From Naegleria gruberi (Eukaryota), in assembly GCA_000004985.1 (NCBI GenBank), contig GG738854.1: DNA of 64,000 nt. One strand, written 5' to 3'. Of the stretch, positions 15,048 to 41,400 are shown piece by piece (position 1 is the first letter of the stretch; every line of letters starts with the position of its first letter). Position numbers and translations under genes: made by a program. Under the pieces are notes generated by a model. It saw only the letters and a program-made list of their open reading frames with translations. It ran no database searches and had not been told where the DNA came from.

Positions 15048-17085
15048 ATGATTAATAAATGGTTTGGCAGTTCGTCATCACCACCGCCACAAGTTTCTTT
15101 TGGAAAGATAAATTCACCAACCAAGTTACCAACTAATTCAAAAGTTTCGGATGAAATTGAACAAAATATTCGAAAGGCTGCAAATGCAATTTTAAAGCAA
15201 GATTGGGAAGTTTTGCAAAATATAAATCTGGAATTGATCATTAATGATAATTCGGTGCAAGGAGAAACATTATTAATGACAGCTGTCAGAAAAAAATGTT
15301 CAAGAGAAATTATTGAATTTTTGGCTCAAGTTTCGAATATTGATTTTATGGTGGTACGTAAATAATTTCACAATTTAAATAATTTAATGTTTGAATAGAA
15401 AAATGTAAGTTTTTTTATTCGAAATACAAGAAATAATTCGAAACTTTATTAGCTTGAGGGAGAAAGTCTTTTAGAAGTAGCTATTCGAAACAAACGATAC
15501 AATACTATAAATCTCTTGAGAAAGAAATACAAGGTTTCTAATGAAATTCGTCCCAAATATTTAATTCAATATTTGTATGCAAAATTGATTTACAGTGATT
15601 CGAATAATTTTGAGGACTTTAGTCTTGACAGTTCTGGAGAGATTAATTGCAATTTCCTTTCGAATTCAAAAGAAGTGGCTTGTCAATTTTTCGAATATGC
15701 AAATTCGTACAGGTCTCTATTGGAAAGTATTGTAAACAAGTCAACTGCCAATGCCATGTCAGTAAGATATATTCTTTCACACAAATCAGTGACATTTGAA
15801 TGTTGGGAGGAATATATTGTGAAAATGTTTGCTGAGATGATGGCGTACAGCTATCCTCATATAATTCAAAAACCAATTTCCTCACCAGAATTAGTCAATC
15901 CTGAAATTGACAGATCAGCAAGATGTGTCATTTCAGGAAATAGAAAAAACAAGCTAACAAAAGTCAAATTGAATGGAATCGAAGTTTTAGAGAAATTTTC
16001 TACAGAAAATGATTTACAAAATGAATTGGACGTTTTTAAGAAAATCAAATGTGACGGAGTTGTTAAATTATTACACGACTTTACTGATGAATATGGAATT
16101 ACTCATTTAATTTTGGAATTGATGGATTGTTCATTGGCTGATTGTTCAACACAATTGACTAATTTTGGAGTTGATAATTTTGGAATGTTAATTCAGGTAT
16201 TATTTATTTGTGTGAAATGTTGTGAAACAATGAAATATTTGCATCGTGATAATATTATTCATTATGATATTAAACCTGCAAATATTTTAATTAACATGAC
16301 AGAGGTTGATGGAATTAAACTTGTTAAGGATGTGAAAATTGCAGACTTTGATGTTTCATTAATTGTTGAAAATGTTGAAACTTATTCAGCAACCATTGGA
16401 GGAACATATCAATATATGGTAAGTCATAATAATGTGATTTCTTGTATTAAAAGTTGTATCAACAAAGGCACCTGAGTTATACGAAAGATTACCTTTCCAA
16501 AAAGCGCAAAATAACTCAATGGAATATGTGTTAACTGCATTTGACGTGTATAGTTTTGGAGTCACCATGTTTGAGTTATTGGCTCGTAGGCATGTTGAAA
16601 CGGATGAGAGATTAGAGTCATTTTTATCTGCTAAAGAACTATTAGAAACATTTCCTTGCTTAACACATGATCAAGCTAGAAAATTAGTCAAAATTGGAAA
16701 CAGTTGTTTAGAAGCAGATCCTAAAAAGAGACCACCATTCGAAAAATTACACAAGTACTTCCTTGAGGTAACTGCTAGTATTTTGAAGAAACCAAAATCA
16801 GAAAGAAATCAGTTATATTCTCTGAGTTTGCAGCAATCTGATAGATATAAGATTCCTCAGCCAGTTTCTAATAACCATTTCACCGAACAAATTACTAAGC
16901 CATCCATAATTGAAAGTCCTGAGAAAAAAGACAAAAAACAATTAACCAACCCTCGCAGGAACCATTCCTCTAATAAGAGAATTGAGAAAGTAAGAGATAT
17001 TGAGCATACAAAAGGCTCTCCAAATGGAGACGAGATTAGGGCAGAAAACAGTGTTGGCAATAGAGGAAACCCAACTCAAAGATAA
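15048..17085 (+). CDS. Ankyrin-repeat protein kinase (atypical HYD/DFD catalytic motifs), 3 exons
   Basis: Exons about 15048..15353, 15453..16418 and 16468..17085. Introns 15354..15452 (GTACGT…AG) and 16419..16467 (GTAAGT…AG). Exons 1-2 join to ankyrin repeats GETLLMTAVRKKCSREIIEFL…LEGESLLEVAIRNKRYNTINLL. Kinase motifs: LHRDNIIHYDIKPANILIN (catalytic loop), KIADFDVS (DFG position), GTYQYM|APELYE (APE restored across intron 2), DVYSFGVTMFELL. Confidence 0.7.
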
Positions 17086-19373: not shown

Positions 19374-20852
19374 AAAGAAGATGATGTTGAGTTGGAGTAG
19401 TCATGTTGAATTGATTGTGGTTGATAAATTCTTCCTTCTTGATCATCATCTTGTTGTTGTGATGTTGTTGTTGTTGTTCGTACTTTTCTTCTTGCTGGAA
19501 CATTTCAAACCGATCATGGAAAGCAACTTGATGATTCATCATTTGTTGTTGTTGGTTAGGGTAATGGCGATTATTATTATTGTTATTGATCATCATCTTT
19601 GTGTGGTATAGTGGTGGTGGTTATTAAAGTATACTTTGATTTGTTATTATTATAATGGTTTATAGAGTGGATTACGAGAGAAATTGTGTGTTGTTTGGTC
19701 AAAGAAGCTACTACTTGTTCTATTTTGCTAAAATTATAAATATCTCTAGAGAGAAATTAATGAATGTTTTTTTGTGTTGTCTATTGCGAATTTGCATTAG
19801 AGGAAGAACTTGGTACCAACATCAACATTATTTTTAGATTGTAAAGTATGCTTGCGCGCCATTTATTGTTGTTATATTTTTGAAATAATAATAAATAACG
19901 ATATTTGTTTAAAAAATAGAAGGACCTGTTGATGGATCTTCATCAAATATTTTCACAAAATCAAAAACATGAATCATGACTAATGAACATATGAATTCAT
20001 CCATTCCAGTATTAAATTGAGTATTAATTCATCAACATCTAGATTATGAATTTTCCAAAAACAAACGAACATCATCAACCACACTTCGGAAGTAAATTAG
20101 CGTCATCTCTGATAACAAAAGTATTTTACCACATTATCTCTTATTTCCGTAGTGCATGATTAAACAGTAGTCGATAATTAATTGAGATTCCAAACACATT
20201 AATTGATATCATGACATCCTTCTTTGCAAAATCATCACACTCCAACTCTACATCAATTGACTTTATGAAACACAATCATCCCAAATCGTAAACATGTCCA
20301 TCCTTTTATGTTCAGGCAAGCATTGATAATTTCCTTCCGAGGCCATCATTCACTCAATTTATTTTAATCCCATTTGATGAATACTTATTGCACAACAGGC
20401 TGACTCTTTTATTGGATTGAGTAATATTCAACTACCGATAATGATGTTATCGAAATACAAAACCCACATCAGTTGAATAAGGACGCAATTTAGAATGCCT
20501 TTCTGACCACCATCAACGCACACAAAGTGTCAGTTAAGCGCTTCTCTCCACTAAAATTGTTTGATGGCTCATGACAAATTGCCTCAAACGCAAGGAAACT
20601 ACAATTTTAAAAAAAAGCATTCTTTTAGCCTCATTGGTTTGTTACTCGTTTTTTTGAAGAATGCCAGCTATTGTTATGAGTGGCACTACTGCCACAAGTA
20701 AAGTGATGGGATTTCACGGTTCTTTATTGGTTTGTATTTTAATGATTTCACTCTTTTTGGTTGACAAATATCATCATACAATGCCATGCTAATGTTTTAT
20801 TGGAATATCTTGTTGGAAATAATAGAAAGGTGGAACCATTACTCAAACAATT

Positions 20853-20909
20853 GTAAGTTTGTTTACTCTTTCGAATAGAAATTTTTACTTTCCAATAATT
20901 CATTGATAG
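20853..20909 (+). other. Putative 5'-UTR intron immediately upstream of the giant gene start codon
   Basis: GTAAGT at 20853 and …TTGATAG at 20909, 21 nt before the ATG at 20931. An in-frame TAG lies just upstream of the donor, so it is non-coding. A 43-codon uORF (MPAIVMSGTTATSKVMGFHGS…) lies at about 20661..20792. Confidence 0.3.
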
Positions 20910-20930
20910 ATCGGTGCTGTAATTTCAAGC

Positions 20931-23900
20931 ATGGTTATTGTTTCTGTTGTAGCTACTGTTATTATGATTTCAACTTCTGTAGGTTACAATCCACCAGAGC
21001 CAAAACCAGATTCATTACAGGCCTATAAGAATACTGCCTATACCATCTATCCTCTTTTGAATGATGTTGATCCAAAAGGAAACAATCTCACCCTCGTCAA
21101 CATTACCCAACCATTGTACGGAACAGCCAAATTACTCGCAGGTAATAAGGTTCAATATACCAGTCCAAAATATTACGCAGGAAATGAAACATTTTATTAT
21201 ACAGTTTATAATGGATATGGATATGCAGAGAGTTATGTTAAAATTGAAGTTTTGAATAGAGTTCCAGAAATTGTAACCATCTATAAGGATATTTCAAAGA
21301 ATAGTCAAAACAATATCATTGATGTTTTCAATTATGTTACTGAGAGTGGAGCTCAAATTAGTGATGTAGATGGTGATATTTTAACAATTGTTAGTATTAC
21401 AACACCAAATGTTGTAGGAGCTGTTGCTACCATTGTTGACTCTCAATTCATTTATTATACTCCACCAACAGGTTATAATAGTGCTGACTTTTTCAATTTT
21501 ACCATTACTGATGGAAATTCAACTGTTAGTGACACTATTTATATCAATGTTTTGAATGATGCTCCAACCAGTAATCCAGATGATTATGTCATTCCAAAGA
21601 ATAAGGTTGCCTCACTCAATTTATTGGCAAACGATTATGATGTCAATTCTGACAATATTACCATTGTTACAGCCAAGTCAGGACTTGGTTCTAAGGGTGT
21701 TGTTGTCTTTTCAGATGATGGTCTCTCTGCTGAATATTATCCATCTGCTGATACTAAGGTCTATAGTGATGCTTTCGAATATACAATCACTGATGGAGAT
21801 AAGGAGTCGGCTACATATGTTTTTGTCAGAGTCAAGAATTCCCCTCCAACCATGGAAAGCAAAACCATTACCATTCCAAAGAACTCTGAGAATAATACCA
21901 TTTCTTTAGAATATGCAGAGAGTGATATTCTCGATACTGTAACAATTACTGTTTCTAAAAAGCCAACTAGGGGAACTTTCACACTTTCACAATTGTCCAC
22001 CTCCAATAACGTTAATTATTTGAATCAACAATGGATGGTTGTAACTCAAAATACTTACACTCTTATTTATACTCCTGAAAAGAGTGTTTCCTACACTGAT
22101 AGCATTACATTCAAGATTGATGATGGCTATGACTTCACATATGCCACCTTTACTCTTAATATTGTCAATTTGCCACCTGTCACTATTAATGATACCATTG
22201 TTTGTCAAAAGAATCAACAAGTCACACTAGATGTTGTTGCCAATGATTATGACTTGAATGGAGATGTCCTCAAGTTATCTTCTTCAGCTGCAGATTGGAC
22301 CAATAGCCGTGGAGGTGCTACAGTCTCAAGAGTTGATGATGTTCAATTGAAATATGTTGCCAAGAGTGGTTTCTTGGGTGAAGATGTTGCCTCATATGTT
22401 GTAACTGATTCTGACAGCACTGCTGCATTGACTTCTACTGGTTATGTTATTGTCACAGTTGTCAATACTCCTCCTGTTGCTGTTGATGATACTATCACCG
22501 TTCCAAAAGGAGTTCTTTCCTCTTTGGATGTATTAATTAATGACAGTGATCCAAACGGAGATGCCATTGATTTCAATGCTACCAGCTTTACATCTACAAG
22601 TGGTGTTGTTTCCAGTGTCAATGTTACTAGTCCAAGAAATTTGTTGAATTATCAAGCTTTTGATGTTGTCTATCAAGATAAGATTACTTATACCATTAAG
22701 GATATTGATGGGGCTACTGCATCTGCCACTATCACCTTAAATGTTGTCAATACTGCTCCCGTTGCTAATGATGATACTATTAGTGTCAAGTGGAATACAA
22801 GCATTGTTATTCCTGTATTGGCCAATGATTATGATCAAAATCCTGCTGATAGAAGCGTTCTCACTGTCAAGACAATTAATGCTGTTTCTTTGAGTGGAGG
22901 TGTTGCTACTTCTTTCAATGGTGGTAAGAGCATCTTGTTCACTCCAACACCTGGTTTTGTTGGAAGCTTTGTTTTTACTTATACTATTACCGATTCTGAT
23001 TTAGAAAGTAATGCTGCAACTGTTACTGTCACTGTTTTTAATAGTGCTCCTGTTCCAGTCAATGATCAAGCTACTACTCACTGGCGTGATACATCAGTTA
23101 CTGTTGATGTGCTCAGTAATGATTCTGATCCAGAGGGTGATAATCTTTATATTCTCAGTGCTACTCAACCAAGTAAGGGTACTGTTTCAATTGTAACTCT
23201 CGATAATGGAAAGGATGGTATCAAATATTCCATCTCATCTTCTCAACAATTTGTCGGTGAGGAAACCATTACCTATACCGTCACTGATTATTCCATGACT
23301 GCAGTAGCTACTCTTAAAGTAACAGTTACAAATCAAGCACCAGTCGCCTTGGGAGATTATGTCAAATTGCATTGGAGTACCTCATCTATTACCATTCCAG
23401 TTTTGGCCAATGATACCGATGCCAACAATGATCCAATTACTATTGGCACAGTTACACCTCCTAATGGATTTGCTGGTACTATTACCAAGATTGATTCAAA
23501 TACCAAACTTCAATTCGTTCCAACTGCTCAATCAAAGGGTGTTCAAGTTGTAACCTATGTTGCTTCTGATGGACAAACCACAAGTGCAGGTGCAAGCTTG
23601 ACAATTGAAGTTACCAATGCTGATGCTCCTTCGGCAAGCACAATTTCTAAAACTGTTCACTGGTCCACTCAAACTACTGGTACTACCATTACATTATTCT
23701 CATCAGCTCGTGATGGAGATGGTGATTTGAATCAAATTGATTTGGCTAGCTCACCAACTGTTGCTCCATCTCACGGTACAGTTACATTGTCTAATGGGGA
23801 TTCCAATACTCTTCCAAACGTTTTGTACAAGCAAAGTACTAACTATCTTGGTTCTGATACTTTCAAGGTACAAGTTACTGATGGTGCAGATAATGCCATT

Positions 23901-26900
23901 TACACTGTCAATATGAACATTTACAACAACAAACCAACTCTCACTGCTGCCTCAACAACAGGTCATTGGTCCAAATTTGCTTCTGGTTATTCAGTTGATG
24001 CCATCTTGTTAACTTCAGCTCAAGATGCCGACTCTCAAGATACTCTTTCACTATCTTCAATTTCTCCAATGGATTTCATTACCATTAATGGAAATCAAAT
24101 CACATTCTTACCTACTGGCTCATTTGCTGGAACAAAGGTCTACACTGTTAATATTACAGATGGTATTGAAATTAGTTCTACATCTTGGACTGTCACTGTT
24201 CAAAACAACGATCCTTCTGCTGTTACAACTACTACAACAATTCACTGGTCTAAGGGATTTGAATTGATTGATGTATTATCTACCATTACAGACGCTGATT
24301 CTGATAGCATTGATTTCTCCCTTGTCAGTACTGCTGCTACAGCAAAAGGTACACCATCCATTCAAGTTTCTGGTTCCAAGAAATTAGTATTGTGGACTCT
24401 TCCATCAGTATCTGTTTCAATGTTAGGAAGTTCATCCTTCTCCATTCAATACACTGACGGATGGAAGACTAAAGAAGCCACCTACACTGTCTCAGTAACA
24501 AATTCTGCTCCAGTTGCCACAGATAAATCAACAACACTCCATTGGTCCAAATATTCAACTGGTGTTTTGATTGATGTCTTGTCAGGTGCTACTGATACCA
24601 ATTCAGAAGATAGTATTTCTTTGACCAGTTCACCATTTTCCTCTCCATCTCATGGAACAGTTTCAGTTAGTGCTGGTAAGGCACTCTATACACCAACACA
24701 AGGATATGTTGGTTCTGATTCATTCACATACTCTGTAACTGATGGTTTGGAAACTTCAACCAAAACTGTCAGTTTGACAATTACCAATCAAAAACCAGTT
24801 GCCAATTCTGACTCTGTCACTATTCACTGGAATACATCTTTTGTTGACATTAATGTATTAGGAAATGATGTAGATTCTGATGCCGAGGATACACCAATTA
24901 TCAAGACCGGCTCAGTTACTACACCAACTCAAGGAACTGCCTCAATTGTTGATGCCACTTTGGGTGTAATTAGATACACCCCATCCCAATCAGTGACAAC
25001 AGGAGCAAAGACCTTCACTTATAAAGTAACAGATGGAGCTGAAATTTCCACTAGTGCAGCAACCGTCACAGTTACTGTTACCAATGCTAATTCACCAAGT
25101 GCTTCTTCCTTGTCAAACACAATGCATTGGAGATCTGCTTTGGTAGGCACCAGCTACTCCTTATTCAATTCTGCTACTGATCCTGATGGTGATGCTCTCA
25201 AAATTAATATCCTTACTAATCCTTCTGGAACTTATTCTATTAACTCTGATGGAACTTCTGTCTTTTTCCAAACGGCTAGTGCAAGTAAGGGAGTTCAAAC
25301 ATGTACCTATACTATTTCAGATGGTTTGTCCACCTCCTCTTCTGCTACCATTACAACAACAGTCACAAACAGTATCCCAACAGCTCAAGATATCTCACTA
25401 AAATATCACTGGAGTATGATTGGAACTGGTTTAACTATTGATGCCATTTCTAAGGCAACTGATAGCGATGCTGCAGATATTGCCAACTTGAAATTGAATT
25501 CAGTTAGTCCCTCTCAAACCTATGGTAACGTTGTTTCAATGAGCCAAGATAAGACTAAGATTATCTATCAACCAACCAATTTACAAGTTGGTAATGATAC
25601 CTTCACATATTCAGTAACTGATGGATTGGACATTTCTACATCGTATACCGTTACAGTAGAAATTACCAGTACTCAAGCAGATCCATCTGATCAAATTTAT
25701 AGTGTTCATTGGAGAGCAGTACCTATTGATTTTAATGTCTTACAAAATGTTTCTAGCAGTGGAAGTGATCAACCAATTTTGGATGGAATTGATACTCCTG
25801 CATCACATGGTACAGTTGCAATTTCACAAGATCAAAAGTATGTGACCTACTCTATGGGAAGTGTCTACGTTGGAACTGACAAATTCGTTCTTAATTATCA
25901 CGTTGGTCTTAGTAATAACAAAATTACTGTAACTGTCAATATTTACAACACACAACCAACTGGTACCTCAAAGACTGTATCTACTCACTGGAGAACTCCA
26001 ATTAATATCAATTTACTTACAGGAGCCAATGATGCTGACTCTCTTGATATTCCAAATCTCTCTGTTCAACTCTCCTCAACACCTTCAAAGGGTGGCTTAT
26101 CCACAGTTTCTTCAGGTAGTGTCACTTACACACCAGAAACAAGTACAAGTGCCTTTATTGGTACCACGTCTTTCAATTTCAAAATTAATGACGGAAATTT
26201 ATTATCATCAAATGTACCTGTATCTGTCACTGTTACAAACACTGCTCCAAAGTCATCTTCAAAGAGTGTCAATGTCTTGTGGAGCGATTTTGTTTCTGGT
26301 AAGGAACTTTCTGTTCTCACATTATCTCCTGCTGATAGTGACGATAATAGTGATCCAATTAGAGTCAAATCATTCGGATCTACAAGTAAGGGAACTGTTG
26401 TAGCTAAAGGTGCATCAGGTTCTGATGCTAATATTGCCATTATTAAGGGTGTTACTGGAGAAAAATATATTGGTGCTGTCTCCTTCACCTATGTTGTGAC
26501 AGATGATGCAGCAAATGGTGATGTTACCACTACTGTCAGTGTCAATGTTTATAACAACAAACCAGTTGCAGTCTCTGATAGTGTCACAACACACTGGAAT
26601 GTCAATTATATTGATATTGATGTGTTGGCAAATGATTCTGATCCAGACTCTAATAGTTTGAGCATTGCCAGTGTTTATGGTTCATCTGCTACTACTGCTC
26701 CAATCATTACTGGTGGTAAGATTAGATATTATCCAAAGACCTCAACTGTTGGTACTGTTGATGTTTTCAAGTATGAACTCAGTGATGGAGCTCAATCAAG
26801 TGAAGGAACTGTCTCTGTCAACGTTACAAACACTAAACCAACAACTAGTTCATTCTCTCAAACCTCTGTATGGTCTGCTGTTAAGAATGGTGTATACTTC

Positions 26901-29900
26901 TCTGTGGTTGCTTCATCATCAGATGCTAATGGAGATTCCTTGTCATTAGCTTCCTATACTTCAATTACCCAAGCTCAAGGAGCATTGTCCACTGTTGGAA
27001 GTGGTTCTTCTGCTCAAATTTCATACGTCCCAACAAGTGGTTTCACTGGAGCAATCAAGCAAATTGTATTCACCATTTCAGATGGAAAGGAGACAAATAC
27101 TGGAACAATTGACGTCACTGTAACAAATAACTTGCCAACAGCCAACACTGGTGCATTTACCTATCACTGGAGACAAGCTTTATTAGCCAATAATATTGTC
27201 TTGACCTCTAGATTTAGTGACAATGATGGTGATTCTGTAACAGTTTCACAAGTCACTTCTGGTGGAAGAGCTGGTGTTACCCTTGTTGCAACCAACACTG
27301 TTAAATATCAATTAGCTTCTGCATGGAAGGGTTCCGATAGCTTTACTGTGCAATTCACTGATGGATGGGGAAGCTCAAGTGCAACTTTCCCAGTTACTGT
27401 AACAAACTCTGTTCCAGTTGCTTATGATATTGCTGTTAATGTTAATCACCTTTCTTCTTCCTCGGTCAGTATTCCAATATTGTCAAGAAGTGATGGTCTT
27501 AAACCAACAGATGCTGATTCTGCAGATTCAGGCGCTCTCACCATCTCTTCATTTACTCAGCCAAGTATTGGTACTGTTACATTATCATCGGGAACTTTTA
27601 CCTTCCAAAACGTTCAAGGCAATTTGGTAAACCAAACCTTTACTTACACAGTTTCTGATGGCTTTGAGACAGTAACTAAAACTATTACCGTAAATATTCT
27701 TGATCAATCTCCAACAGCTAATAGTGTTAGCAAGACCTATCACTGGAAGACTATTCAAAGTGGACTTGACTTGAACTTTATCACAGAATCTTCTGCTACT
27801 GATCCAGATGGAGATACATTGTCAATTTCTGCATTTACTCAACCACAAACAGGTACAGGTACTGTTGCTAGAAAAGCTGGCTCGACAACCAATCTCATAT
27901 ACACTCCACCAGCAGGAACAGCCCCACTTACTGCTACCTTTAAATTCACTGTCAGTGATGGTAGTATTTCAGTTGAAAACACGGCAACAATTTCCTTGAC
28001 AAATACTGCTCCAGTTGCTGTTTCTGATTCGGTTTCCAAGTTGTGGAATAATAAGGTCTTTACCATTAATCCACTTGCTAATGATTCTGATGGTAACGGA
28101 GACACAATTACAATCTCTAGTGTTGATTCAACTTCTTTGATTCGTGGTGCTACTTTAACTATCTCTTCTGATAAGCTCTCTATCACTTACACCTATACTG
28201 GAAGTGGTGCCACTGGCACAGATAGCTTTAAGTATACTATTACTGATGGAGCATCTACCTCAACTGCAACAGTGACCATCACATTTACCAATCAAGAACC
28301 TGTTGTTTCATCTGTTACTCAAAGTGTCAAGTGGAATTCAGCACTAACTGTTAATTCTTTATTGTCTAGTTGTTCAGATGCTGATGGAGATACCTTGTCA
28401 TTTGTTTCTATTTCTTCAGGTCAATATGGTTCTGTTGTCACCAATGATGCATCAGTTGGAAAGATTACCTATACACCAGCTGCATCTATTTCCTATACCA
28501 GTAAACCAAATTCTGGCAGATGGGAAGCTGTTGATGTATTGACATTCAAATGTACAGATGGTTTGGCTGAGAAGTCTGGCACTCTCTCTATCACTATTTG
28601 GAATACTCCACCAACAGGAAGTAACAAGAATGGAACCTTTACCAGAACTTACAGCTCTCCAACTCTATCAATTCCAGAGAGTACTTTCAAGACTGGTGCT
28701 AGTGATGCTGATTCCGATACCATTTCTTTGAGCGCTGTCCAAATGTATTCCTCATCAGATTCTTCATGCTCAGTGGTTTTGCAATCTGACAAGTCAGTTA
28801 AATTCACTTATGGTCAATCCTTTGTTGGAACTCAACAATTCTATTTTACTTTGAGTGATGGTCAATTGACTAATACATACACTTACACAATTACTATTTC
28901 CAACACTTTAACTTGTATGGATTACACTCTCACAACCACAAAGAATAGTGCAGCAACTCAATTCGAAGATTCCATCAAGAGTCAATGGGCAACAAACTTT
29001 GGTAGTGAATCAATTACACTCTCAATAGTATCTACAACCAATTTGAATTCTGTTGGTACCATTACAACTGTCAGCAGTAAGCTCACCTATACCCCCACTG
29101 CCAGAAGATCATGCACAGGAACTAATTGTTATGCTGTTTATAGAGTTTCTAACACTGCTTCCCAAACTGCTGATTGTAATATTTATGTAGTACAACCAAA
29201 TAATGCACCAACTGCAACTAATTGGGACTATGAATTCTCTATTAGAAGAGATGGTAACGATGCTCGTACTTTTGATTATTTGACAGACTCTGCTGCTACC
29301 GATTCTGATACCTCTGACAGTCTCAGCATTTCAATTTCTAGTACTGGAACATGTAGCTCTGCTGGTACTTTGTCAATCGTTAGTAATAAGATTAGCTTTG
29401 TAAGATCCTCATCATACGCTGATCAAAGATGTACATTTACATTGACAGTTAGCGATAATGATCTTTCAAATCCACGTACAACTTCTGTAATCATTGGTAT
29501 CAAGCCAATTAGCTCTCCACCAATTGCAGTCAGTGATTCCTTCACAGCTGTTTACAATAACAAGATTGATATCCTTGCATCTGACCTATTAACTAATGAC
29601 TACGATCCTCTTGGGGGTACTTTTGTATTTGCTGGTATTGATTGCCCGGATTCTACATATTGTAAAAATGCTGGAATACCAACCATTTTGAATCCAAGTG
29701 ATAGTGCAAATAATAGAATTATCAGAGTTTTACCAAAGACTGGAAGTTGTGAAGCCGAAAAAGTCAGATACAAGATTACTTCTGTCCAAGACAGTACCAC
29801 TGCCTATGCTGATATTAATATCAAGTATAGTAATTGTGTTTGTAGTCAAATATTCGATTTGATTTTCATTTTGGATGGTAGTGGTTCTATATCAGCAACC

Positions 29901-31403
29901 AATTGGAAGAATATGGTTTACTTTGTAACAAACATTACCAGTGGATTTGATGTTAGCTCAACCGGTACAAATATTGGTATTGTACAATACGGTACTGATT
30001 CTACTCTTCACTTATCTGTCAACGCTGGTACCTCAAAGACAACAGTCAATAACATGGTTTCAAGTATTACTCAAAAGAAGAGTAGTACAGCCACCATTTT
30101 GGGTATTAACACTGCTGTTAATAACATGATTAATTATGGTAGATCTTCTGTGGCTAACAAGCTGTTCATTCATATTACTGATGGTGAGTCAAATGTTCCA
30201 TCCAACTGTTACTCAATGTACTCTCTTTTGGGAGTAACTGATACCGTCTCAAACAGGTTCCCTGGAAAATCGTGTTTAGATTGTGACTGGACTAATTCTA
30301 GTTCTAAGGCTCAACCATGTGCTGAAGCAACAATTAGATCAGCTGAAATCAATTCTTGGAAGGGTTATCGTCAATTAACTATTGGTATAGGTGATGGTGT
30401 AACATCTTCATTCGGTATGAGTCAAATTCAAAAGATGAATTACGATCCTTTAAAGTTCTTCGTAGTTGACTGGAGTGATTTGACCAGTATTTATCAATCA
30501 ATTATCGATGAAGCTTGTAATACTGTAACTACCTCATCTTCTTACACTAAGAGACCAATTTCAGATTTTGATTATACCATTTCATTCACATCAAGAGTTG
30601 TAACTTCAAGAACTGCTTTTGATTCCACTTTTGAAATCACAACCTTTACCTACACATTGAAAGCTCCATCAAGCAGTGCAAGTGGTGCTATTACTCGTTT
30701 CACATTGGCCAACAATATCAATTCTACATATTATAATACCTACAATCCGTCATTCCCTGTTTATGTTGGTACTGATGTTGTTTCCTCACTCTCTGGTTTC
30801 ACTTGGGAATCCTTGCCAAATGGAAAAATTGTTTCTCTCGGGTCAACCAAGACCTTCTCTGTCTCTGTCTATGGAAATGTTCCAGCTGCAAGTATCTCTT
30901 ATGCAATTACTGGCTCATCTTCATATGCAGTTTCAACAATTACAGGACCCGCCACATCTGCCACCTATTCGTTCATTCCACCAACTTCTGAATCAACAAC
31001 ATTGAGAGCTACATACTGTTCTTCCACAAGATGTATGATTCGTGCAGTATTCACTTCTCCAATGCAATATGCTGATGTTGCTAAGGTCTGTAAATTGTGG
31101 AACTCTAAGGCCATTCCTGTAACCATCAAGACAGCCACAGAAAAAACAGAAGTTGCCAATATTTCAGGTGGATACACATTCTTCATTGGCTTGAATAAGG
31201 ACAGTGGATCTTGGAGATGGGTTGATGATAAGTCAGTTGCTTCCTACACTGATTGGAAATCTGGTGAGCCAAACAATAACAGTCCAACCAGTTACAGTGA
31301 TTATTATGTTTGGGCTCAATCAACAACTGCCAACTCTCCTTGGTGGAATGATGTTCCAATGGTTTACACAGTAACAGCTGTTGTTTGTCAATACAAGTTG
31401 TAA
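20931..31403 (+). CDS. Giant secreted adhesin-like protein: signal peptide, ~27 tandem cadherin-like ~95-aa repeats, Cys-rich region, vWA domain, C-terminal C-type lectin domain
   Basis: 3490-aa uninterrupted ORF. Signal peptide MVIVSVVATVIMISTSVG. Repeats carry T-x-H-W…I-D-V-L-x-N-D-x-D-x-(N/D)-G-D-x-L…G-T-V…Y-T-P…F-x-G-x-D-x-F-x-Y-x-V-x-D-G…V-T-V-x-N-x-x-P. vWA: DLIFILDGSGSISATNW…GIVQYGTDS…ITDGESN (about 29866..30510). C-type lectin domain: GYTFFIGLNKDSGSWRWVDDKSVASYTDWKSGEPNN…WNDVPCQ-like (about 31085..31400). Confidence 0.85.
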   Translation: MVIVSVVATVIMISTSVGYNPPEPKPDSLQAYKNTAYTIYPLLNDVDPKGNNLTLVNITQPLYGTAKLLAGNKVQYTSPKYYAGNETFYYTVYNGYGYAESYVKIEVLNRVPEIVTIYKDISKNSQNNIIDVFNYVTESGAQISDVDGDILTIVSITTPNVVGAVATIVDSQFIYYTPPTGYNSADFFNFTITDGNSTVSDTIYINVLNDAPTSNPDDYVIPKNKVASLNLLANDYDVNSDNITIVTAKSGLGSKGVVVFSDDGLSAEYYPSADTKVYSDAFEYTITDGDKESATYVFVRVKNSPPTMESKTITIPKNSENNTISLEYAESDILDTVTITVSKKPTRGTFTLSQLSTSNNVNYLNQQWMVVTQNTYTLIYTPEKSVSYTDSITFKIDDGYDFTYATFTLNIVNLPPVTINDTIVCQKNQQVTLDVVANDYDLNGDVLKLSSSAADWTNSRGGATVSRVDDVQLKYVAKSGFLGEDVASYVVTDSDSTAALTSTGYVIVTVVNTPPVAVDDTITVPKGVLSSLDVLINDSDPNGDAIDFNATSFTSTSGVVSSVNVTSPRNLLNYQAFDVVYQDKITYTIKDIDGATASATITLNVVNTAPVANDDTISVKWNTSIVIPVLANDYDQNPADRSVLTVKTINAVSLSGGVATSFNGGKSILFTPTPGFVGSFVFTYTITDSDLESNAATVTVTVFNSAPVPVNDQATTHWRDTSVTVDVLSNDSDPEGDNLYILSATQPSKGTVSIVTLDNGKDGIKYSISSSQQFVGEETITYTVTDYSMTAVATLKVTVTNQAPVALGDYVKLHWSTSSITIPVLANDTDANNDPITIGTVTPPNGFAGTITKIDSNTKLQFVPTAQSKGVQVVTYVASDGQTTSAGASLTIEVTNADAPSASTISKTVHWSTQTTGTTITLFSSARDGDGDLNQIDLASSPTVAPSHGTVTLSNGDSNTLPNVLYKQSTNYLGSDTFKVQVTDGADNAIYTVNMNIYNNKPTLTAASTTGHWSKFASGYSVDAILLTSAQDADSQDTLSLSSISPMDFITINGNQITFLPTGSFAGTKVYTVNITDGIEISSTSWTVTVQNNDPSAVTTTTTIHWSKGFELIDVLSTITDADSDSIDFSLVSTAATAKGTPSIQVSGSKKLVLWTLPSVSVSMLGSSSFSIQYTDGWKTKEATYTVSVTNSAPVATDKSTTLHWSKYSTGVLIDVLSGATDTNSEDSISLTSSPFSSPSHGTVSVSAGKALYTPTQGYVGSDSFTYSVTDGLETSTKTVSLTITNQKPVANSDSVTIHWNTSFVDINVLGNDVDSDAEDTPIIKTGSVTTPTQGTASIVDATLGVIRYTPSQSVTTGAKTFTYKVTDGAEISTSAATVTVTVTNANSPSASSLSNTMHWRSALVGTSYSLFNSATDPDGDALKINILTNPSGTYSINSDGTSVFFQTASASKGVQTCTYTISDGLSTSSSATITTTVTNSIPTAQDISLKYHWSMIGTGLTIDAISKATDSDAADIANLKLNSVSPSQTYGNVVSMSQDKTKIIYQPTNLQVGNDTFTYSVTDGLDISTSYTVTVEITSTQADPSDQIYSVHWRAVPIDFNVLQNVSSSGSDQPILDGIDTPASHGTVAISQDQKYVTYSMGSVYVGTDKFVLNYHVGLSNNKITVTVNIYNTQPTGTSKTVSTHWRTPININLLTGANDADSLDIPNLSVQLSSTPSKGGLSTVSSGSVTYTPETSTSAFIGTTSFNFKINDGNLLSSNVPVSVTVTNTAPKSSSKSVNVLWSDFVSGKELSVLTLSPADSDDNSDPIRVKSFGSTSKGTVVAKGASGSDANIAIIKGVTGEKYIGAVSFTYVVTDDAANGDVTTTVSVNVYNNKPVAVSDSVTTHWNVNYIDIDVLANDSDPDSNSLSIASVYGSSATTAPIITGGKIRYYPKTSTVGTVDVFKYELSDGAQSSEGTVSVNVTNTKPTTSSFSQTSVWSAVKNGVYFSVVASSSDANGDSLSLASYTSITQAQGALSTVGSGSSAQISYVPTSGFTGAIKQIVFTISDGKETNTGTIDVTVTNNLPTANTGAFTYHWRQALLANNIVLTSRFSDNDGDSVTVSQVTSGGRAGVTLVATNTVKYQLASAWKGSDSFTVQFTDGWGSSSATFPVTVTNSVPVAYDIAVNVNHLSSSSVSIPILSRSDGLKPTDADSADSGALTISSFTQPSIGTVTLSSGTFTFQNVQGNLVNQTFTYTVSDGFETVTKTITVNILDQSPTANSVSKTYHWKTIQSGLDLNFITESSATDPDGDTLSISAFTQPQTGTGTVARKAGSTTNLIYTPPAGTAPLTATFKFTVSDGSISVENTATISLTNTAPVAVSDSVSKLWNNKVFTINPLANDSDGNGDTITISSVDSTSLIRGATLTISSDKLSITYTYTGSGATGTDSFKYTITDGASTSTATVTITFTNQEPVVSSVTQSVKWNSALTVNSLLSSCSDADGDTLSFVSISSGQYGSVVTNDASVGKITYTPAASISYTSKPNSGRWEAVDVLTFKCTDGLAEKSGTLSITIWNTPPTGSNKNGTFTRTYSSPTLSIPESTFKTGASDADSDTISLSAVQMYSSSDSSCSVVLQSDKSVKFTYGQSFVGTQQFYFTLSDGQLTNTYTYTITISNTLTCMDYTLTTTKNSAATQFEDSIKSQWATNFGSESITLSIVSTTNLNSVGTITTVSSKLTYTPTARRSCTGTNCYAVYRVSNTASQTADCNIYVVQPNNAPTATNWDYEFSIRRDGNDARTFDYLTDSAATDSDTSDSLSISISSTGTCSSAGTLSIVSNKISFVRSSSYADQRCTFTLTVSDNDLSNPRTTSVIIGIKPISSPPIAVSDSFTAVYNNKIDILASDLLTNDYDPLGGTFVFAGIDCPDSTYCKNAGIPTILNPSDSANNRIIRVLPKTGSCEAEKVRYKITSVQDSTTAYADINIKYSNCVCSQIFDLIFILDGSGSISATNWKNMVYFVTNITSGFDVSSTGTNIGIVQYGTDSTLHLSVNAGTSKTTVNNMVSSITQKKSSTATILGINTAVNNMINYGRSSVANKLFIHITDGESNVPSNCYSMYSLLGVTDTVSNRFPGKSCLDCDWTNSSSKAQPCAEATIRSAEINSWKGYRQLTIGIGDGVTSSFGMSQIQKMNYDPLKFFVVDWSDLTSIYQSIIDEACNTVTTSSSYTKRPISDFDYTISFTSRVVTSRTAFDSTFEITTFTYTLKAPSSSASGAITRFTLANNINSTYYNTYNPSFPVYVGTDVVSSLSGFTWESLPNGKIVSLGSTKTFSVSVYGNVPAASISYAITGSSSYAVSTITGPATSATYSFIPPTSESTTLRATYCSSTRCMIRAVFTSPMQYADVAKVCKLWNSKAIPVTIKTATEKTEVANISGGYTFFIGLNKDSGSWRWVDDKSVASYTDWKSGEPNNNSPTSYSDYYVWAQSTTANSPWWNDVPMVYTVTAVVCQYKL
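21540..29650 (+). repeat. Intragenic tandem array of diverged ~285-300-bp coding repeats (about 27 copies)
   Basis: Periodic recurrence at the DNA and protein level of the AATGATTATGAT / GTTTTGGCCAATGAT (…VLANDYD…) and ACTGTTACTGTT…AAT…CCA blocks. Copies are diverged rather than identical. Confidence 0.7.
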
Positions 31404-31677: not shown

Positions 31678-34479
31678 ATGACTTCTTCCGACAATAAGAA
31701 TAACTCTGCTTCATCATCGAAGGATGGCAGTAATAGTACCACTCCTGGTAAGAAGGCTATTGCTCTTGCTGCTCCAGAATTGTCAGAGGAAGATCAAAGA
31801 TTAAAGGACGATCTTGAAGAAATGGTCAATAATATTTGTAATTCACCACAACAACAACGTACTGCCTTGGAATCTCTCAAGGAAGAATTAAAGAAATCAC
31901 TCACAACAGCTGTTACTACAATCCCAAAGCCTCTTAAATTCTTAAGAATACATTACGAACCACTCAAGGAAGCTTACGAAAAGAATACTGCTAGAGATAA
32001 TAAGATCCTCTTTGCAAATATTCTCTCAGTATTGGGTATGTCCTTGTCCATTGAAGGTGAAAGGGATTGTTTGAAATACATGTTGGAAGCTGATGATGAT
32101 GAATTTGATAAGTGGGGACACGAATATGTTAGATCTCTTGCTGGAGAAATCGGAGAAGAATATCAAACAAGACTCCAAGAAAAGATCCAAATGCAAGAAA
32201 GAATAATACAAGAAACTGGTGATGATATGGTCATTGATACTGACTTTAAACCTGAGGAAATTATGGATATTCTTACACTTGTTAACAAGATTGTTCCATA
32301 CTTTATGAAGAGTGCTTCTGAACCTGAAGCTTGTGATTTACTTATCGAAACTGAAAAGTTATCAAAGATTGTCGATTATTGTGATGAAACAAATTATACT
32401 CGTGTTTGTTTATACTTGGGTGGTGTTTCTAAATACTTTATTGAACCTGAGAATACTCAAACTTTAAAGATTGTGTACGATATTTATAGAAAGCTTAACA
32501 AACTTCCAGAATCACTCCGAATTGCTATGCAATTAAATGATATTGGTCTTATTAAGGATACATTCTTCAGCTGTGATGATAGCCTCTTAAGGAAACAACT
32601 TGCTCTCATGCTCGGAAGAGGTAATTATAAATTCTCAGTTGCTGATCAACTTGAAGATGAAGGTGCTGAATTGGAAGAAATTATGGGTAACTGCAAGTTG
32701 AGTCAATACTTTTTGTATTTGGCTAAACAATTGGATTCTCTTGAACCAAAGACTCCAGAAGATGTCTACAAATCACATCTCTCTGAAACAAGATCAACTT
32801 TGACTCAAAATGTTGACTCTGCTCGTCAAAACCTTGCTTCATCATTTGTTAATGGTTTTGTCAATGCTGGTTTTGGTACAGACAAGTTGATTAAATCTGA
32901 AGATTCTTGGATTTATAAGAATAAGGATGCTGGTATGCTCAGTGCTGTTGCTTCATTGGGTTTGATTTATTTGTGGAACTATGAAGAAGGTTTGATGGAA
33001 ATTGACAAGTATTTGTATAGTAGTGATAATAACATTAAGGCTGGTGCTTTACTCGCCATTGCCAATTTCAGTGCTGGTATTAGAACTGAAGCTGATCCTG
33101 CTTTGGCTATCTTACCTGAACATGTTGAATCTGGTCTTCCTAGAGAAGTCAGAATTGCTTCAATTCTCGGTCTCGGTATTGCTGGTGCTGGTAGTGCTAA
33201 TGAACAAATCTTCCAATTGTTAATTCCAATCATTGTTGATCCTGATCAACCAATGGAAATTGTATCATTTGCTGCTTTGTCTTTGGGTATGATCTTTGTA
33301 GGTACAATGAATGAAGATATTACAGAATCACTCATTCAAGTTTATCTTGAAAGAAGTGAAAAGGATCTTGCTCATCCATTAGCTAAGTTTGTTGCTTTGG
33401 GCTTAGGTATGCTCTTCTTGGGTAAACAAGAAGCTGTTGATTCTGTTTGTGAATCCATCATGACTACTGTTAATGCCAAGTTGGCCAAGTTTGTTACTTT
33501 GACTGTTGAAGTTTGCGCTTATTGTGGTACTGGTAACGTTTTGAAGATTCAACAATTGTTGAAGATTTGTGGTGAACATCCTGAAAAGCCAAAGAAGGAA
33601 GAAGCTCAACCAAGTCAAGGTGCTCAAGCTAGTGCTTCTGCTGCTACTACTGAAAAGAAGGAAGAGGAAGAAGATGTTTTGACCAATACTTATCATGGTG
33701 TTGCTGCTTTGGGTATTTCTTTAATTTGTATGGGAGAAGATTTGGGTTGTGAAATGGCTAATAGATCATTCGGTCACTTGCTCCAATATTCTGAAATGGG
33801 AGTTAAGAGAGCTGTTCCACTTGCTATGAGTTTATTGAATGTTTCTAATCCAGACATGGCAGTTATGGATACTTTGAGCAAATTGTCTCACGATAATGAT
33901 GCAGAACTTTCTCAAAATGCCATCTTTGCTTTGGGTGTTATTGGTGCCGGTACTAACAATGCTAGAATTGGCCAATTGCTCAGACAATTGTCAACATATT
34001 ATCAAAAGGAACCAAACCACCTTTTCATTGTTCGTGTTTCTCAAGGTTTATTGTCCACTGGTAAGGGTTTGATAACAATGAATCCATTCTACTCTGATCG
34101 TTCCATCCTTTCTCAATCCCAATTGTGTGGTTTGATGACTCTCCTCTTTACTGGTCTCGACTTTAAGAATACCATCTTGTCTAACTATCACTACTTGTTG
34201 TATACTGCTGCTTCTGCCATGTATCCAAGAATGCTTGTTTTGGTTGATGAAAACCTTGAACCAGTTCAAGCTAACGTTCGTGTTGGTCAATCAGTTGATG
34301 TTGTTGCCCAAGCTGGTAAACCAAGATCAATCACAGGTTTCCAAACACATAAGGCTCCAGTCATCCTGCAGTTCGAAGAAAGAGCTGAATTGGCCTCTGA
34401 AGAGTTCATTCCACTCAGTTCAACACTTGATAATGTAATTATTGTAAAGAAGAATCCAGAATATGAAGCTGAAATCTAA
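31678..34479 (+). CDS. RPN1: 26S proteasome regulatory subunit RPN1 (PSMD2)
   Basis: 933 aa, collinear with human PSMD2. Matching blocks: SEEDQRLKDDLEEMV, PKPLKFLRIHYEPLKEAYE, GHEYVRSLAGEI, DSARQNLASSFVNGFVNAGFG, WIYKNKDAGMLSAVASLGLIYLW, PC-repeat cores LGLGIAGAGS and HGVAALGISLICMGEDLG, ITGFQTHKAPVILQFEERAELASEEFIPL, KKNPEYE. Confidence 0.95.
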   Translation: MTSSDNKNNSASSSKDGSNSTTPGKKAIALAAPELSEEDQRLKDDLEEMVNNICNSPQQQRTALESLKEELKKSLTTAVTTIPKPLKFLRIHYEPLKEAYEKNTARDNKILFANILSVLGMSLSIEGERDCLKYMLEADDDEFDKWGHEYVRSLAGEIGEEYQTRLQEKIQMQERIIQETGDDMVIDTDFKPEEIMDILTLVNKIVPYFMKSASEPEACDLLIETEKLSKIVDYCDETNYTRVCLYLGGVSKYFIEPENTQTLKIVYDIYRKLNKLPESLRIAMQLNDIGLIKDTFFSCDDSLLRKQLALMLGRGNYKFSVADQLEDEGAELEEIMGNCKLSQYFLYLAKQLDSLEPKTPEDVYKSHLSETRSTLTQNVDSARQNLASSFVNGFVNAGFGTDKLIKSEDSWIYKNKDAGMLSAVASLGLIYLWNYEEGLMEIDKYLYSSDNNIKAGALLAIANFSAGIRTEADPALAILPEHVESGLPREVRIASILGLGIAGAGSANEQIFQLLIPIIVDPDQPMEIVSFAALSLGMIFVGTMNEDITESLIQVYLERSEKDLAHPLAKFVALGLGMLFLGKQEAVDSVCESIMTTVNAKLAKFVTLTVEVCAYCGTGNVLKIQQLLKICGEHPEKPKKEEAQPSQGAQASASAATTEKKEEEEDVLTNTYHGVAALGISLICMGEDLGCEMANRSFGHLLQYSEMGVKRAVPLAMSLLNVSNPDMAVMDTLSKLSHDNDAELSQNAIFALGVIGAGTNNARIGQLLRQLSTYYQKEPNHLFIVRVSQGLLSTGKGLITMNPFYSDRSILSQSQLCGLMTLLFTGLDFKNTILSNYHYLLYTAASAMYPRMLVLVDENLEPVQANVRVGQSVDVVAQAGKPRSITGFQTHKAPVILQFEERAELASEEFIPLSSTLDNVIIVKKNPEYEAEI

Positions 34480-38456: not shown

Positions 38457-41400
38457 ATGTTTCGTTTCTTCTTATTGATAACACTCACACTTGCAGGTTT
38501 CGTGCACCAGCAGATGCATGTCAGTGGAGCCGAATCCAATGTTAAATACATAGTCAAGACCTATTCAACTCTACCAGCCAACACCAATCCAAATGCCATT
38601 CAATTCTATAACCACAAGATGTATGTAACAGGTTCCACTAATAACATCTATGCAGTTTCGAATAATGGAAGTTATACCATCGTAAACCCAATATCCACTT
38701 TGGATGCTCCAACAGGAATACATATTGTGGATGATTGGCTCTATGTTTCTAATAGTGGATCTCAGAAAGTTTCCAAGATGTATTTAAATGATTCTCCAAT
38801 TCAAGTATTTGATGTTTTAACATTTTATCCTAATACGAATCTTTTTGTTTTATCAGAAAGTGAATTGTATGCAGTCGATAAGAATAATAACTTGATTCGA
38901 CACTGGAAGGATAGTTCCTTTGCATTGGTTAGTGTTGGCAGTCTTAATGGACCGAATGGAATTTTTATTCGAAACAATACTATTTACTTTACCGAAAATG
39001 GAGCTCGTACATTGAAAGCAATCGATCAAAATAATCAAATTTCAATTCTTGCTTCAGATATTAATGCGTATTCAGTATATGTCACTGAAGATAATGTCAT
39101 TTTCTTTACAGATTATGTTGGTAGCCTAATTTGGAGAATTAAAGACGGTCAATCTTCGGTAATTGCTGGATATTCAGGAAGTTCTGGTAATGATAATAAG
39201 GAGAATGTCAATGCCACTTCTAGTAGTGTAACTCTTCCTACTGGAATAACATTTGACAACTTGACAGGTATAATTTACTTTGCAGAAATTTCCAATCAAC
39301 GAATTCGTGGATTGATTCCATATTGTGAAACAGCTGGACATTACTTGAATGCACAAAAGTCACGTTGTGTGTCAAGTGTCTGTTCAGGAGTTGACAGCAC
39401 CAACTCTTCTGTTTGTTCATCACGTGGTATTTGTAATCAAACCAATCAATGCTCATGCCAATCAAAGTATTTTGGTGATAATTGTGAATTGACAAGTTGT
39501 AATGGAATTCAAAGTAATTCAAATTTGGTTTGTTCTGGAAATGGAACTTGTCAAGATTACAATTTTTGTAATTGTAAGAATGGTTTGCTTGGAAAGAATT
39601 GTCAAATTGCAACTTGCTTTGGAATTTTATCCAATCAAACAAGTGCTTGCAGTAGTGGAAGAGGTATTTGTCAAGGAATGGATTTTTGTAATTGTTCGAA
39701 AGGTTTCGTCGGCCAAGATTGTGCTGAACATACATGTGGAGGCATTTCTTATAATAACACAGCAACTTGTTCTGGAAATGGAACGTGTGTTGGTGTAGAT
39801 AGCTGTTCTTGCAAGGAGGGTTTTTATGGAGATAACTGTCAAATGCCAAAATGTTTTTCAATCATGTCAAATGACACGAGTGTTTGCTCTGGTAATGGAG
39901 AATGTATTGGAAAAGATAAGTGCAATTGTAAGAGTGATTATTCTGGATATCGTTGTGAAATAACTTCATGTTTCGGTATCCCATCAAACTATTCGAATGT
40001 TTGTTCTGGAAATGGAAATTGCACTTTCAAAGATTTCTGTAATTGCACATTTGGATATTTAGGTAAACAATGTGAAGTTGCTCCTTGTTATGGAATTCCA
40101 GCAAATTATTCGAATGTCTGTTCTGGAAATGGAAATTGTAATGGAAAAGATAATTGTAATTGTCAACCAGGATTTTCAGGAAATCAATGTGAAATTCCAA
40201 CTTGTTTTGGAATTTTGGGAAACAGTTCAATGGCGTGCTCTGGCAATGGAGAATGTCAAAATTTAGATCAATGCAATTGTAATTCAAATTATACTGGATC
40301 AAAATGTGATGTTCCTATATGTTTCGGTATTGCAAAAAGTTCTAGTTTAGTTTGCTCAGCTATTGGAAATTGTACGAAACCTGATTTTTGTGAATGTCCA
40401 TCAAATTATGAAGGATACGAATGTCAATTTCGCATCACTCCAAGAAAATTACAAACTAATGGCATTCCAACTGCAATTGTCCAAGGAATTTCCACAACTT
40501 TTGATTTGAAAGTTATTGGAATGGAATTGAGAACATTTAGTGATCTAGTCAACTCGAGAAAGGATTGTGGAGTGACATGTTCACTTTCTTTATCATATAG
40601 TTGGTATTTGAAGGATAGAGACAATGGTTCACCGTTAATTATCCAACATTCGAATACCGCATTTGGAAATACGAAATATCTTTCGTCTTCAACTTTCCAG
40701 TTGACTTTCTCACCTGTTATTTCAATTGGTTTTACTAGAATTTTAAGTAGAAATGTAACTTTGACATTTGAAATTGTATCTGGTGGTGAAAATGTTTCAA
40801 TTTCTCAAGATATCTTGATTATTTCACCTCTGTTGAGAACTAAAGGTTTAGGTAAGATTCAACCAAGTTCTGGAATCGCACTTGGTTCCTTATTTTCAAT
40901 AGAGGAAGATAAGAATCTTTGGACAGTCTCGGAAGAAAGTAAGAAATATCTTGAACCTTTTCAATTTGCCTTTGGTTTCTTTTACAATCAAGAATTAGTA
41001 AGAATCTCTGATTTTTCCATAAATGGGATGGATTTATTGTTCCTTCCATATTTGAACGCAAATAATAGTAATGGACAAAGTGAAAATTTGGATATTTATG
41101 TTATCTGTAAGGATGCTTTAAAGAATGAATATTCTTCTCTTATTGGTACTGTTTCAATTAGTCCAAATTTGGTAAACACAGTTGAAGAATTGAAAAATCA
41201 AATTGATGATATTGCACGCATTATTCCTTATGACTCTTCATGGAAGTTTAGAGATCTGAAAGAATACAGCTCTGTTATTATCGAGTCTGTCAGCAAGTTG
41301 AGTATTGACATTAATAATCCATCAAATACTTTAACAACTCTTCGACAATTGACAAGCCAAAGTGTTGCTTCTTCTTACCAAGTTGGTTCTATCATTAATG

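Follow-up and report, generated by a model that had tools for sequence, protein, structure and literature searches.

The 64,000-nucleotide stretch of Naegleria gruberi DNA analysed here (contig GG738854.1 of assembly GCA_000004985.1; hereafter the window, with coordinates counted from its first letter) carries an uninterrupted open reading frame (ORF) of 3490 codons at 20931..31403 on the plus strand. In DNA of 35% GC an ORF of this length is not a product of chance, and it proved intact and without a break. An initial annotation made from the letters alone had described a secreted giant in which bacterial-type cadherin-like repeats are joined to eukaryotic von Willebrand factor A (vWA) and C-type lectin domains. 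We find it reasonably probable that this nuclear gene encodes a 3529-residue cell-surface protein built like a fibrillar adhesin, with a stalk of tandem repeats and a tip that combines a vWA domain bearing a metal-ion-dependent adhesion site (MIDAS) with a C-type lectin-like domain (CTLD), and that it serves in adhesion or prey recognition.

The start of the gene probably lies upstream of the ATG at 20931. Judged by its splice signals and conserved peptides, the model is join(20661..20729, 20826..20852, 20910..31403), with a spliced coding sequence of 10590 nt including the stop codon, a product of 3529 aa and no internal stop. Its features are as follows, with residue numbers referring to the ORF unless stated otherwise.

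20661..20729 (+), predicted exon 1, 23 codons, MPAIVMSGTTATSKVMGFHGSLL: start of the putative N-terminal cytoplasmic tail
20826..20852 (+), predicted exon 2, 9 codons, KGGTITQTI, with AG on its 5' side: conserved juxtamembrane motif
20910..31403 (+), exon 3, within which lies the ORF 20931..31403 (counted with its stop codon)
20910..20978 (+), single hydrophobic segment IGAVISSMVIVSVVATVIMISTS: predicted signal anchor or transmembrane (TM) segment, or else the h-region of a long signal peptide
20988..29822 (+), aa 20-2964, array of 30 head-to-tail repeats of ~95 aa of the Big_9/Cadherin_4/Cadherin_5/tandem-95 type: stalk
29856..30524 (+), aa 2976-3198, vWA domain with a complete MIDAS
30207..30335 (+), aa 3093-3135, Cys-rich insertion within the vWA domain, 43 residues with 4 Cys
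30525..31010 (+), aa 3199-3360, 'mid' domain, 162 aa, all-beta as predicted with AlphaFold2 (AF2)
31011..31400 (+), aa 3361-3490, CTLD with the motifs FIGL, EPN (31266-31274) and WND (31344-31352)

Exon 1 opens with an ATG that has an in-frame stop two codons 5' of it and is directly followed by a GT..AG intron of 96 nt; the intron after exon 2 is GTAAGT..AG and 57 nt long, so that the encoded N-terminus reads MPAIVMSGTTATSKVMGFHGSLL/KGGTITQTI/IGAV... across the two junctions. The exon 1 peptide is homologous to the N-termini of a Naegleria lovaniensis protein (P0122) and of two N. gruberi paralogues (P0212 and P0213), in whose published models the upstream peptide is also present. The motif KGGTI(T/A/S)QT is common to N. 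lovaniensis DNA (L005) and both N. gruberi paralogues, and N. lovaniensis DNA keeps the upstream peptide together with identical intron positions. By exact-sequence look-up, neither the ORF product nor the products of the neighbouring genes nor the spliced 3529-aa model have a verbatim match in the protein collection. In public annotations the 5' exons seem to be missing or cut short, or the models depart from the simple ORF, which makes the family easy to overlook. The N. gruberi genome was published in 2010, and we found no paper on this architecture in the literature; the gene is uncharacterised, and an orthologue already carries the automatic name 'Tandem-95 repeat protein'.

By profile matches, the stalk repeats are members of the tandem-95/Big_9 family, which is dominated by prokaryotes. 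Pfam scans of the ORF protein returned Big_9 with 758.2 bits (cut-off 23.6) over 23 stretches, Cadherin_4 with 490 bits and Cadherin_5 with 465 bits, and the NCBIfam model tand_rpt_95 scored 538.8 bits (cut-off 90) over 24 stretches; the families concerned (NF012211, PF17963, PF17803 and PF17892) overlap. The initial annotation had assigned the repeats to the bacterial tandem-95 type rather than to metazoan cadherins, and the Pfam and NCBIfam checks bear this out: the eukaryote-specific families, classical Cadherin (PF00028) and FAS1, were not reported at E ≤ 0.01 for the whole protein, nor was PF00028 for the N-terminal slice. A bacterial RTX protein is the only solved structure that matches the repeats.

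A self-built hidden Markov model resolves the array into 30 contiguous units of 88-109 aa with gaps of 0-6 residues between them, where ~27 had been counted initially. The units have diverged from one another (mean pairwise identity 26%, maximum 47%), and Tandem Repeats Finder detected no tandem repeat at the DNA level. This excludes a recent expansion of the array and an error of assembly, and shows the repeats to be old, each having diverged on its own. Of the 30 repeats, 25 keep an acidic loop of the NDxDxDGD type, with three or more Asp or Glu residues. The last three, R28-R30, are divergent and contain Cys, and a short CxC linker follows them. What had been taken for a Cys-rich spacer is thus these three repeats with their linker, and the other Cys cluster sits inside the vWA domain.

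The vWA domain that follows scores 73.0-77.4 bits with PF00092 (cut-off 23.8) and 36.7 bits with VWA_2. The MIDAS-like DGSGS noted initially (aa 2982) is part of a complete site, together with the T in SSTATILG and the D in HITDG, and these residues are conserved in all six family sequences. Searches of the PDB gave 73 vWA or I-domain matches at E ≤ 0.001, of which the closest are the I-domains of integrins alpha1, alphaM and alphaX (best 4e-12), collagen VI, a mussel thread matrix protein and apicomplexan MIC2/TRAP. The Pfam match reaches no further than position 117 of the 174 in the model, and past the Cys-rich insert the fold continues. In Naegleria fowleri a canonical 65-nt GTAAGT..AG intron lies inside this insert, and N. 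gruberi has none there.

The mid domain has no match in Pfam and no sequence match in the PDB. AF2 predicts beta strands for it, with a predicted local distance difference test (pLDDT) score of 70-82 in parts of a model of the mid domain and CTLD that scores 53.5 overall. In an exhaustive HMMER search of 1.84 billion cluster representatives, we saw the domain only in Naegleria-type proteins, and the full module of mid domain and CTLD in few sequences, with animal CTLDs as the next matches.

The CTLD is easily missed. Pfam did not report Lectin_C for the whole protein or for a 151-aa slice (30948-31400), even at E ≤ 10, and yet on a tight 129-aa slice the same model (PF00059) scores 31.8 bits (cut-off 22.6) over model positions 2-106 of 107. 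HMMER's filters presumably account for the difference, as flanking Ser/Thr-rich sequence can hide real domains. A phmmer search of the last 151 residues against the PDB gave 87 matches, and all 60 of those listed are CTLDs, with CLEC10A best at 5e-7; a three-sequence profile gave 111 matches, again with CTLDs in 60 of the 60 listed, including CEL-I at 3e-11 and DEC-205 at 3e-26 summed over its domains. The corresponding domains of N. lovaniensis and N. fowleri reach 37.1 and 41.4 bits with Lectin_C. Both signature motifs are present (EPN at aa 3446, WND at aa 3472), so that the CTLD with EPN and WND proposed initially holds, on the strength of the tight slice and the PDB matches. The description of both head domains as eukaryotic also stands, the vWA domain being closest to the integrin I-domain/collagen VI/TRAP type and the CTLD to animal CTLDs. 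By inspection of the alignment, the CTLD has the outer cysteine pair C3387...C3486 and the N-terminal pair of long-form domains, C3363 and C3368.

At the other end of the protein, the hydrophobic segment (spliced aa ~32-55) contains the highest Kyte-Doolittle 19-residue window of the whole sequence, 2.62; elsewhere only two windows pass 1.6, both marginally and close to residue 189 within repeat 2, and the same scan of the spliced protein found no hydrophobic C-terminal segment. The segment is conserved in the paralogues and is preceded by a conserved tail of 32 aa. A secreted, non-anchored component of the extracellular matrix, glycocalyx or cyst wall, with the hydrophobic N-terminus cleaved off as a signal peptide, would agree with the small residues after the hydrophobic stretch (STSVG/Y, a possible cleavage site), with 29 N-glycosylation sequons and a combined Ser and Thr content of 28%, and with the frequent occurrence of vWA and lectin domains in matrix proteins such as collagen VI. 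However, the 32 residues before the hydrophobic stretch are conserved among paralogues that are otherwise only ~30-35% identical, which is unusual for the n-region of a signal peptide and fits a retained cytoplasmic tail better. For this reason we favour a type II anchor and consider free secretion rather unlikely: the hydropathy and conservation of the N-terminus make the protein more likely membrane-anchored with its N-terminus inside and its C-terminus outside (N-in/C-out). Under either reading, anchor or cleaved signal peptide, the stalk and head would be extracellular. The earlier label 'secreted' thus keeps its extracellular sense and loses that of free release, since the upstream mini-exons probably turn the hydrophobic N-terminus into an internal signal anchor.

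The architecture recurs across the genus. The N. lovaniensis orthologue XP_044542534.1 (3429 aa) is the one that UniProt names 'Tandem-95 repeat protein', and the N. fowleri orthologue (3547 aa, with the same Pfam content) adjoins the RPN1 gene on VFQX01000063.1, in inverted orientation and with a PAS-cyclase gene nearby. A tblastn search against N. fowleri yielded a single collinear alignment with 62.9% identity over 2874 residues, and 57.9% in the head; the best-conserved part is the C-terminal half of the vWA domain at 83%, and the mid domain and CTLD are at 55-56%. The repeats correspond one-to-one, at 48-80% identity per repeat, whereas repeats within the protein average 26%. Since the two species separated, every repeat has therefore remained recognisable as itself, a pattern that speaks for selection along the entire stalk. 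At the locus compared in Willaertia, there is no such gene beside RPN1.

Two further N. gruberi loci, annotated as 'predicted proteins' NAEGRDRAFT_72752 (2816 aa) and NAEGRDRAFT_79811 (2366 aa), encode paralogues with the full module, in which the lectin domain is degenerate. A metagenome protein (P0001) likewise has the mid domain and CTLD, and a metagenome fragment (P0224) matches the mid domain alone. Orthologues and paralogues share the order tail, TM segment, repeats, vWA domain, mid domain and CTLD-like domain, with repeat counts of 30, 30, at least 28, 22 and 18 over the family (30 each in the window protein and N. lovaniensis, 22 and 18 in the paralogues).

Three further observations concern relatives of the gene. 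Paralogue NAEGRDRAFT_72752 (P0212) has an insert in mid-stalk, at ~aa 1640-1850, that matches the Pfam family Ice_binding/DUF3494 with 39.9 bits (cut-off 28.7); it recalls the ligand-binding inserts of RTX adhesins, and the distribution of the domain is mainly microbial and transfer-prone. In N. lovaniensis (PYSW02000108.1, L005), frameshifts and stops interrupt, at positions ~2170-2500, what is still recognisable as a paralogue's TM segment and first repeat, a stretch that the public model skips as an 'intron' and that could reflect assembly indels or a decaying copy. A metagenome contig of 35% GC (L001, from ERZ929261) encodes at 2540-4801 a short relative with ~2 repeats followed by vWA domain, mid domain and degenerate CTLD; it has a DUF4495 gene beside it, and its probable source is another Naegleria-like amoeba.

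The relatives of the repeats themselves lie mainly elsewhere. A word-indexed search with the first 600 residues, which returned proteins of up to ~1050 aa, placed N. lovaniensis at the top (45% identity), followed by two metagenome proteins, one of them (P0124) on a contig of prokaryote-type genes, and then by Ig-like, tandem-95 and VCBS proteins with 24-37% identity in local alignments. Among the 88 matches, all those attributed to an organism are prokaryotic except Naegleria, and come from many bacterial phyla and one Asgard metagenome-assembled genome (MAG). At the level of single repeats, 16 of 30 match a prokaryotic repeat (at up to 49% identity) better than any sister repeat; the other 14 match each other best, and most of these are the central 'HW' repeats R10-R24, a subgroup internal to Naegleria. 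In composition, the gene resembles its surroundings: its GC3 (GC content at third codon positions) is 0.25 compared to 0.27-0.33 in the neighbours, and its relative synonymous codon usage (RSCU) correlates with that of the pooled neighbours at 0.96. The one raised value, GC2 (second positions), follows from the protein's high Ser and Thr content.

The initial annotation had suggested horizontal acquisition or domain shuffling. Shuffling with capture of the repeats is reasonable, and the codon-usage and GC check shows no foreign signature; the suggested look for introns in orthologues did return one, the 65-nt intron in the N. fowleri vWA insert. Given host-like codon usage, introns and conservation across the genus, any transfer would have to be ancient, with no donor that can be named. 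The most likely course, as far as sequence comparison can tell, is that a bacterial repeat module was captured before the Naegleria species diverged, became joined to a eukaryote-type anchor and head, expanded internally, and adapted to the host, including by intron gain.

Could the gene instead be a bacterial adhesin gene of recent arrival, or bacterial contamination or mis-assembly within a eukaryotic contig? The repeat family is overwhelmingly prokaryotic, and exon 3 runs for 10.5 kb without introns, as such an origin would predict. However, eukaryotic genes lie on both flanks (MORN/VPS9, BTB, a kinase split by a short intron, RING, RPN1, EGF-GPS-RGS and PAS-guanylate cyclase, among others), and in N. 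fowleri the gene again lies in synteny with RPN1 and the PAS-cyclase gene. The gene has two 5' spliceosomal introns and one extra in N. fowleri, its GC3 and RSCU are those of its neighbours, its head domains are of eukaryotic type, and neither RTX repeats nor type I secretion features appear in Pfam and NCBIfam scans. On genomic context, introns and codon usage, we reject contamination or recent transfer, which has next to no probability. A giant-virus route is likewise unsupported: viral contigs yielded no relative of the C-terminal module.

Vertical inheritance from an early eukaryote, with loss of the repeats nearly everywhere else and no horizontal transfer at all, deserves more weight, and we still regard it as improbable. 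It is in keeping with the lack of a compositional trace of transfer, with the protein from one Asgard archaeal MAG among the matches, and with repeats that are as divergent from bacterial ones (25-49%) as from one another. On the other hand, it would demand many independent losses: Naegleria is the sole named eukaryote among the 88 matches to the first 600 residues, the full C-terminal module is limited to Naegleria-type sequences across the 1.84 billion representatives, and Willaertia lacks the gene at the RPN1 locus.

Among the neighbouring genes of the window, several show gene-model features of their own.

15516-17085 (+): kinase domain over two ORFs ~45 nt apart, consistent with a short spliceosomal intron
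31678-34479 (+): RPN1 ORF of 933 aa, to which the published N. gruberi model of 893 aa is identical at 893 of 893 aligned residues; the model is without two in-frame segments of 9 and 31 aa, which are probably over-predicted introns, and the match identifies the source as N. gruberi NEG-M, a heterolobosean amoeboflagellate
38457-43697 (+): ORF of 1746 aa with teneurin-type EGF repeats, a GPS motif and a C-terminal RGS domain, an adhesion-GPCR-like/RGS fusion
46110-52000 (+): TPR_TmcB, PAS and guanylate cyclase pieces across four adjacent ORFs, probably one intron-containing gene, since in N. fowleri the counterpart next to RPN1 is modelled as one gene with a product of 1982 aa

Three known systems help to place the protein encoded at 20661..31403. 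In bacterial RTX adhesins, an N-terminal anchor is followed by extender repeats of ~104 residues with an Ig-like fold, each ~5 nm long and made rigid by Ca2+, and then by domains for ligand binding at the C-terminus (PMC5550230); in AhLap of Aeromonas hydrophila, for example, a lectin-like module for carbohydrate occurs together with a vWFA domain interrupted by an insertion (PMC12077191). Like these fibrillar adhesins (AhLap and MpIBP of Marinomonas primoryensis), the Naegleria protein has a probable N-terminal anchor, a tandem Ig-like/cadherin-like extender with acidic, putatively Ca2+-binding sites, and C-terminal domains predicted to bind ligands. Unlike them, it has a predicted eukaryotic-style TM or signal anchor and a CTLD in place of a carbohydrate-binding module or PA14, its repeats are mutually diverged (26%) rather than near-identical, and it is encoded by a nuclear gene with introns. 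Pfam and NCBIfam scans found neither PF00353 (HemolysinCabind) nor retention-module families, and the C-terminus is the CTLD. Without RTX repeats, retention module or type I secretion signal, the protein is not an RTX adhesin. To the prokaryotic tandem-95/Big_9/VCBS proteins, commonly labelled 'Ig-like domain-containing', it is related through a repeat unit that is a clear member (539-758 bits, 23-30 copies); it differs from them in its lectin domain, Lectin_C being present in 0 of the 88 matches to the first 600 residues (proteins of up to ~1050 aa, precomputed Pfam domains), and in the module of mid domain and CTLD, which is confined to Naegleria-type proteins.

The third comparison is with the type II C-type lectin receptors of animals (langerin, DC-SIGN, CLEC10A/MGL and the asialoglycoprotein receptor), which are among the best PDB matches of the CTLD. 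Like them, the Naegleria protein is predicted to have its N-terminus inside, on a short tail, followed by a single TM segment, an extended neck and a C-terminal carbohydrate-recognition domain with EPN...WND. In contrast to theirs, the Naegleria 'neck' is a repeat stalk of ~2950 aa and not a coiled coil, a vWA and a mid domain precede the recognition domain, one canonical disulfide seems to be missing, and the host is a heterolobosean, distant from animals and choanoflagellates.

Put together, these features suggest how the protein might work. The short conserved N-terminal tail and single hydrophobic segment would anchor it in the plasma membrane, N-terminus inward, as a type II protein; alternatively, the hydrophobic segment may be removed as a long signal peptide. 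The 30 beta-sandwich repeats would form the stalk, stiffened by Ca2+ that the acidic loops probably bind, and by analogy with the ~5 nm per bacterial extender repeat this stalk may be ~0.15 um long. At the tip, the vWA domain with its complete MIDAS is predicted to bind protein ligands in a metal-dependent manner, and EPN...WND in the CTLD predicts a Ca2+/sugar site with a mannose/GlcNAc-type signature. The head of vWA, mid and lectin domains, held ~0.15 um off the membrane, would be available for Ca2+-dependent binding, and its most likely job is Ca2+-dependent attachment to surfaces, prey bacteria or other cells, or recognition for phagocytosis. The 'matrix or cell-cell adhesion molecule' of the initial annotation survives as a proposed adhesive role; the host is a solitary heterolobosean amoeba, and the cell-cell or matrix sense has to be read in that context.

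An overlapping alternative is that of a signalling or phagocytic receptor, in which the conserved cytoplasmic tail passes on what binds at the tip as a signal. Its motif SLLKGGTI(T/S)QT recurs in the paralogues, and the Naegleria pangenome paper counts C-type lectins among the candidate pattern-recognition receptors for feeding, with two core C-type lectins listed but not described (PMC9928731). The tail, however, has ~32 residues with no signalling domain recognisable by Pfam, and a stalk of ~0.15 um suits reach and attachment more than the transmission of a signal, which makes a dedicated signalling role unlikely.

Several results weigh against the adhesin we propose and its history. The lectin motifs are EPN/WND in the window gene alone: at these positions, NPN/WDD occurs in the orthologues of N. 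fowleri and N. lovaniensis, and neither N. gruberi paralogue retains the motifs, so sugar binding is not a conserved property of the family. In the CTLD of the window gene, alignment inspection places Y and M at the positions of the inner disulfide, so that one canonical disulfide appears to be absent. The structural models are poor: an AF2 model of the 531-aa C-terminal part from two sequences had a pLDDT of 34 and was discarded, that of the mid domain and CTLD, from six sequences, did not exceed 53.5, and a Foldseek search of the latter against the PDB gave no match at E ≤ 0.001 and weak CTLD-like ones alone, which we do not use as evidence. The topology is read from hydropathy and conservation, and the positive-charge bias on the cytosolic side is weak. 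As for origin, the proposed horizontal capture comes with no compositional signal and no donor clade, the prokaryotic comparison set was chosen with repeats R01-R06, and the word-indexed search was limited to proteins of up to ~1050 aa, so that the giant orthologues escaped it and came to light through synteny and the exhaustive search of representatives.

A more specific proposal goes beyond adhesion in general: that these proteins are genus-specific giant type II 'reach-out' receptors, in which a stalk that an ancient horizontal transfer brought in from bacterial fibrillar adhesins presents a tip of integrin-like MIDAS vWA and genuine EPN/WND lectin for Ca2+-dependent capture of prey or attachment to host tissue. 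We offer it tentatively, as a possibility on the doubtful side.

If the adhesin reading is true, Naegleria would have a eukaryotic counterpart of the anchor-extender-tip design of bacterial giant adhesins, and domain-level transfer with shuffling would be seen to make new surface machinery in a protist. C-type lectins are usually placed as an innovation of animals and choanoflagellates (PMC3753549, PMC6040629); a CTLD with EPN and WND in Discoba is mildly surprising in this light and bears on where and when such lectins arose. The 3547-aa orthologue of N. fowleri, infection with which is nearly always fatal, is probably surface-exposed and may be an adhesin, a diagnostic antigen or a target for blocking. 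Were the genus-specific receptor proposal true, this orthologue would be a candidate surface adhesin in primary amoebic meningoencephalitis.

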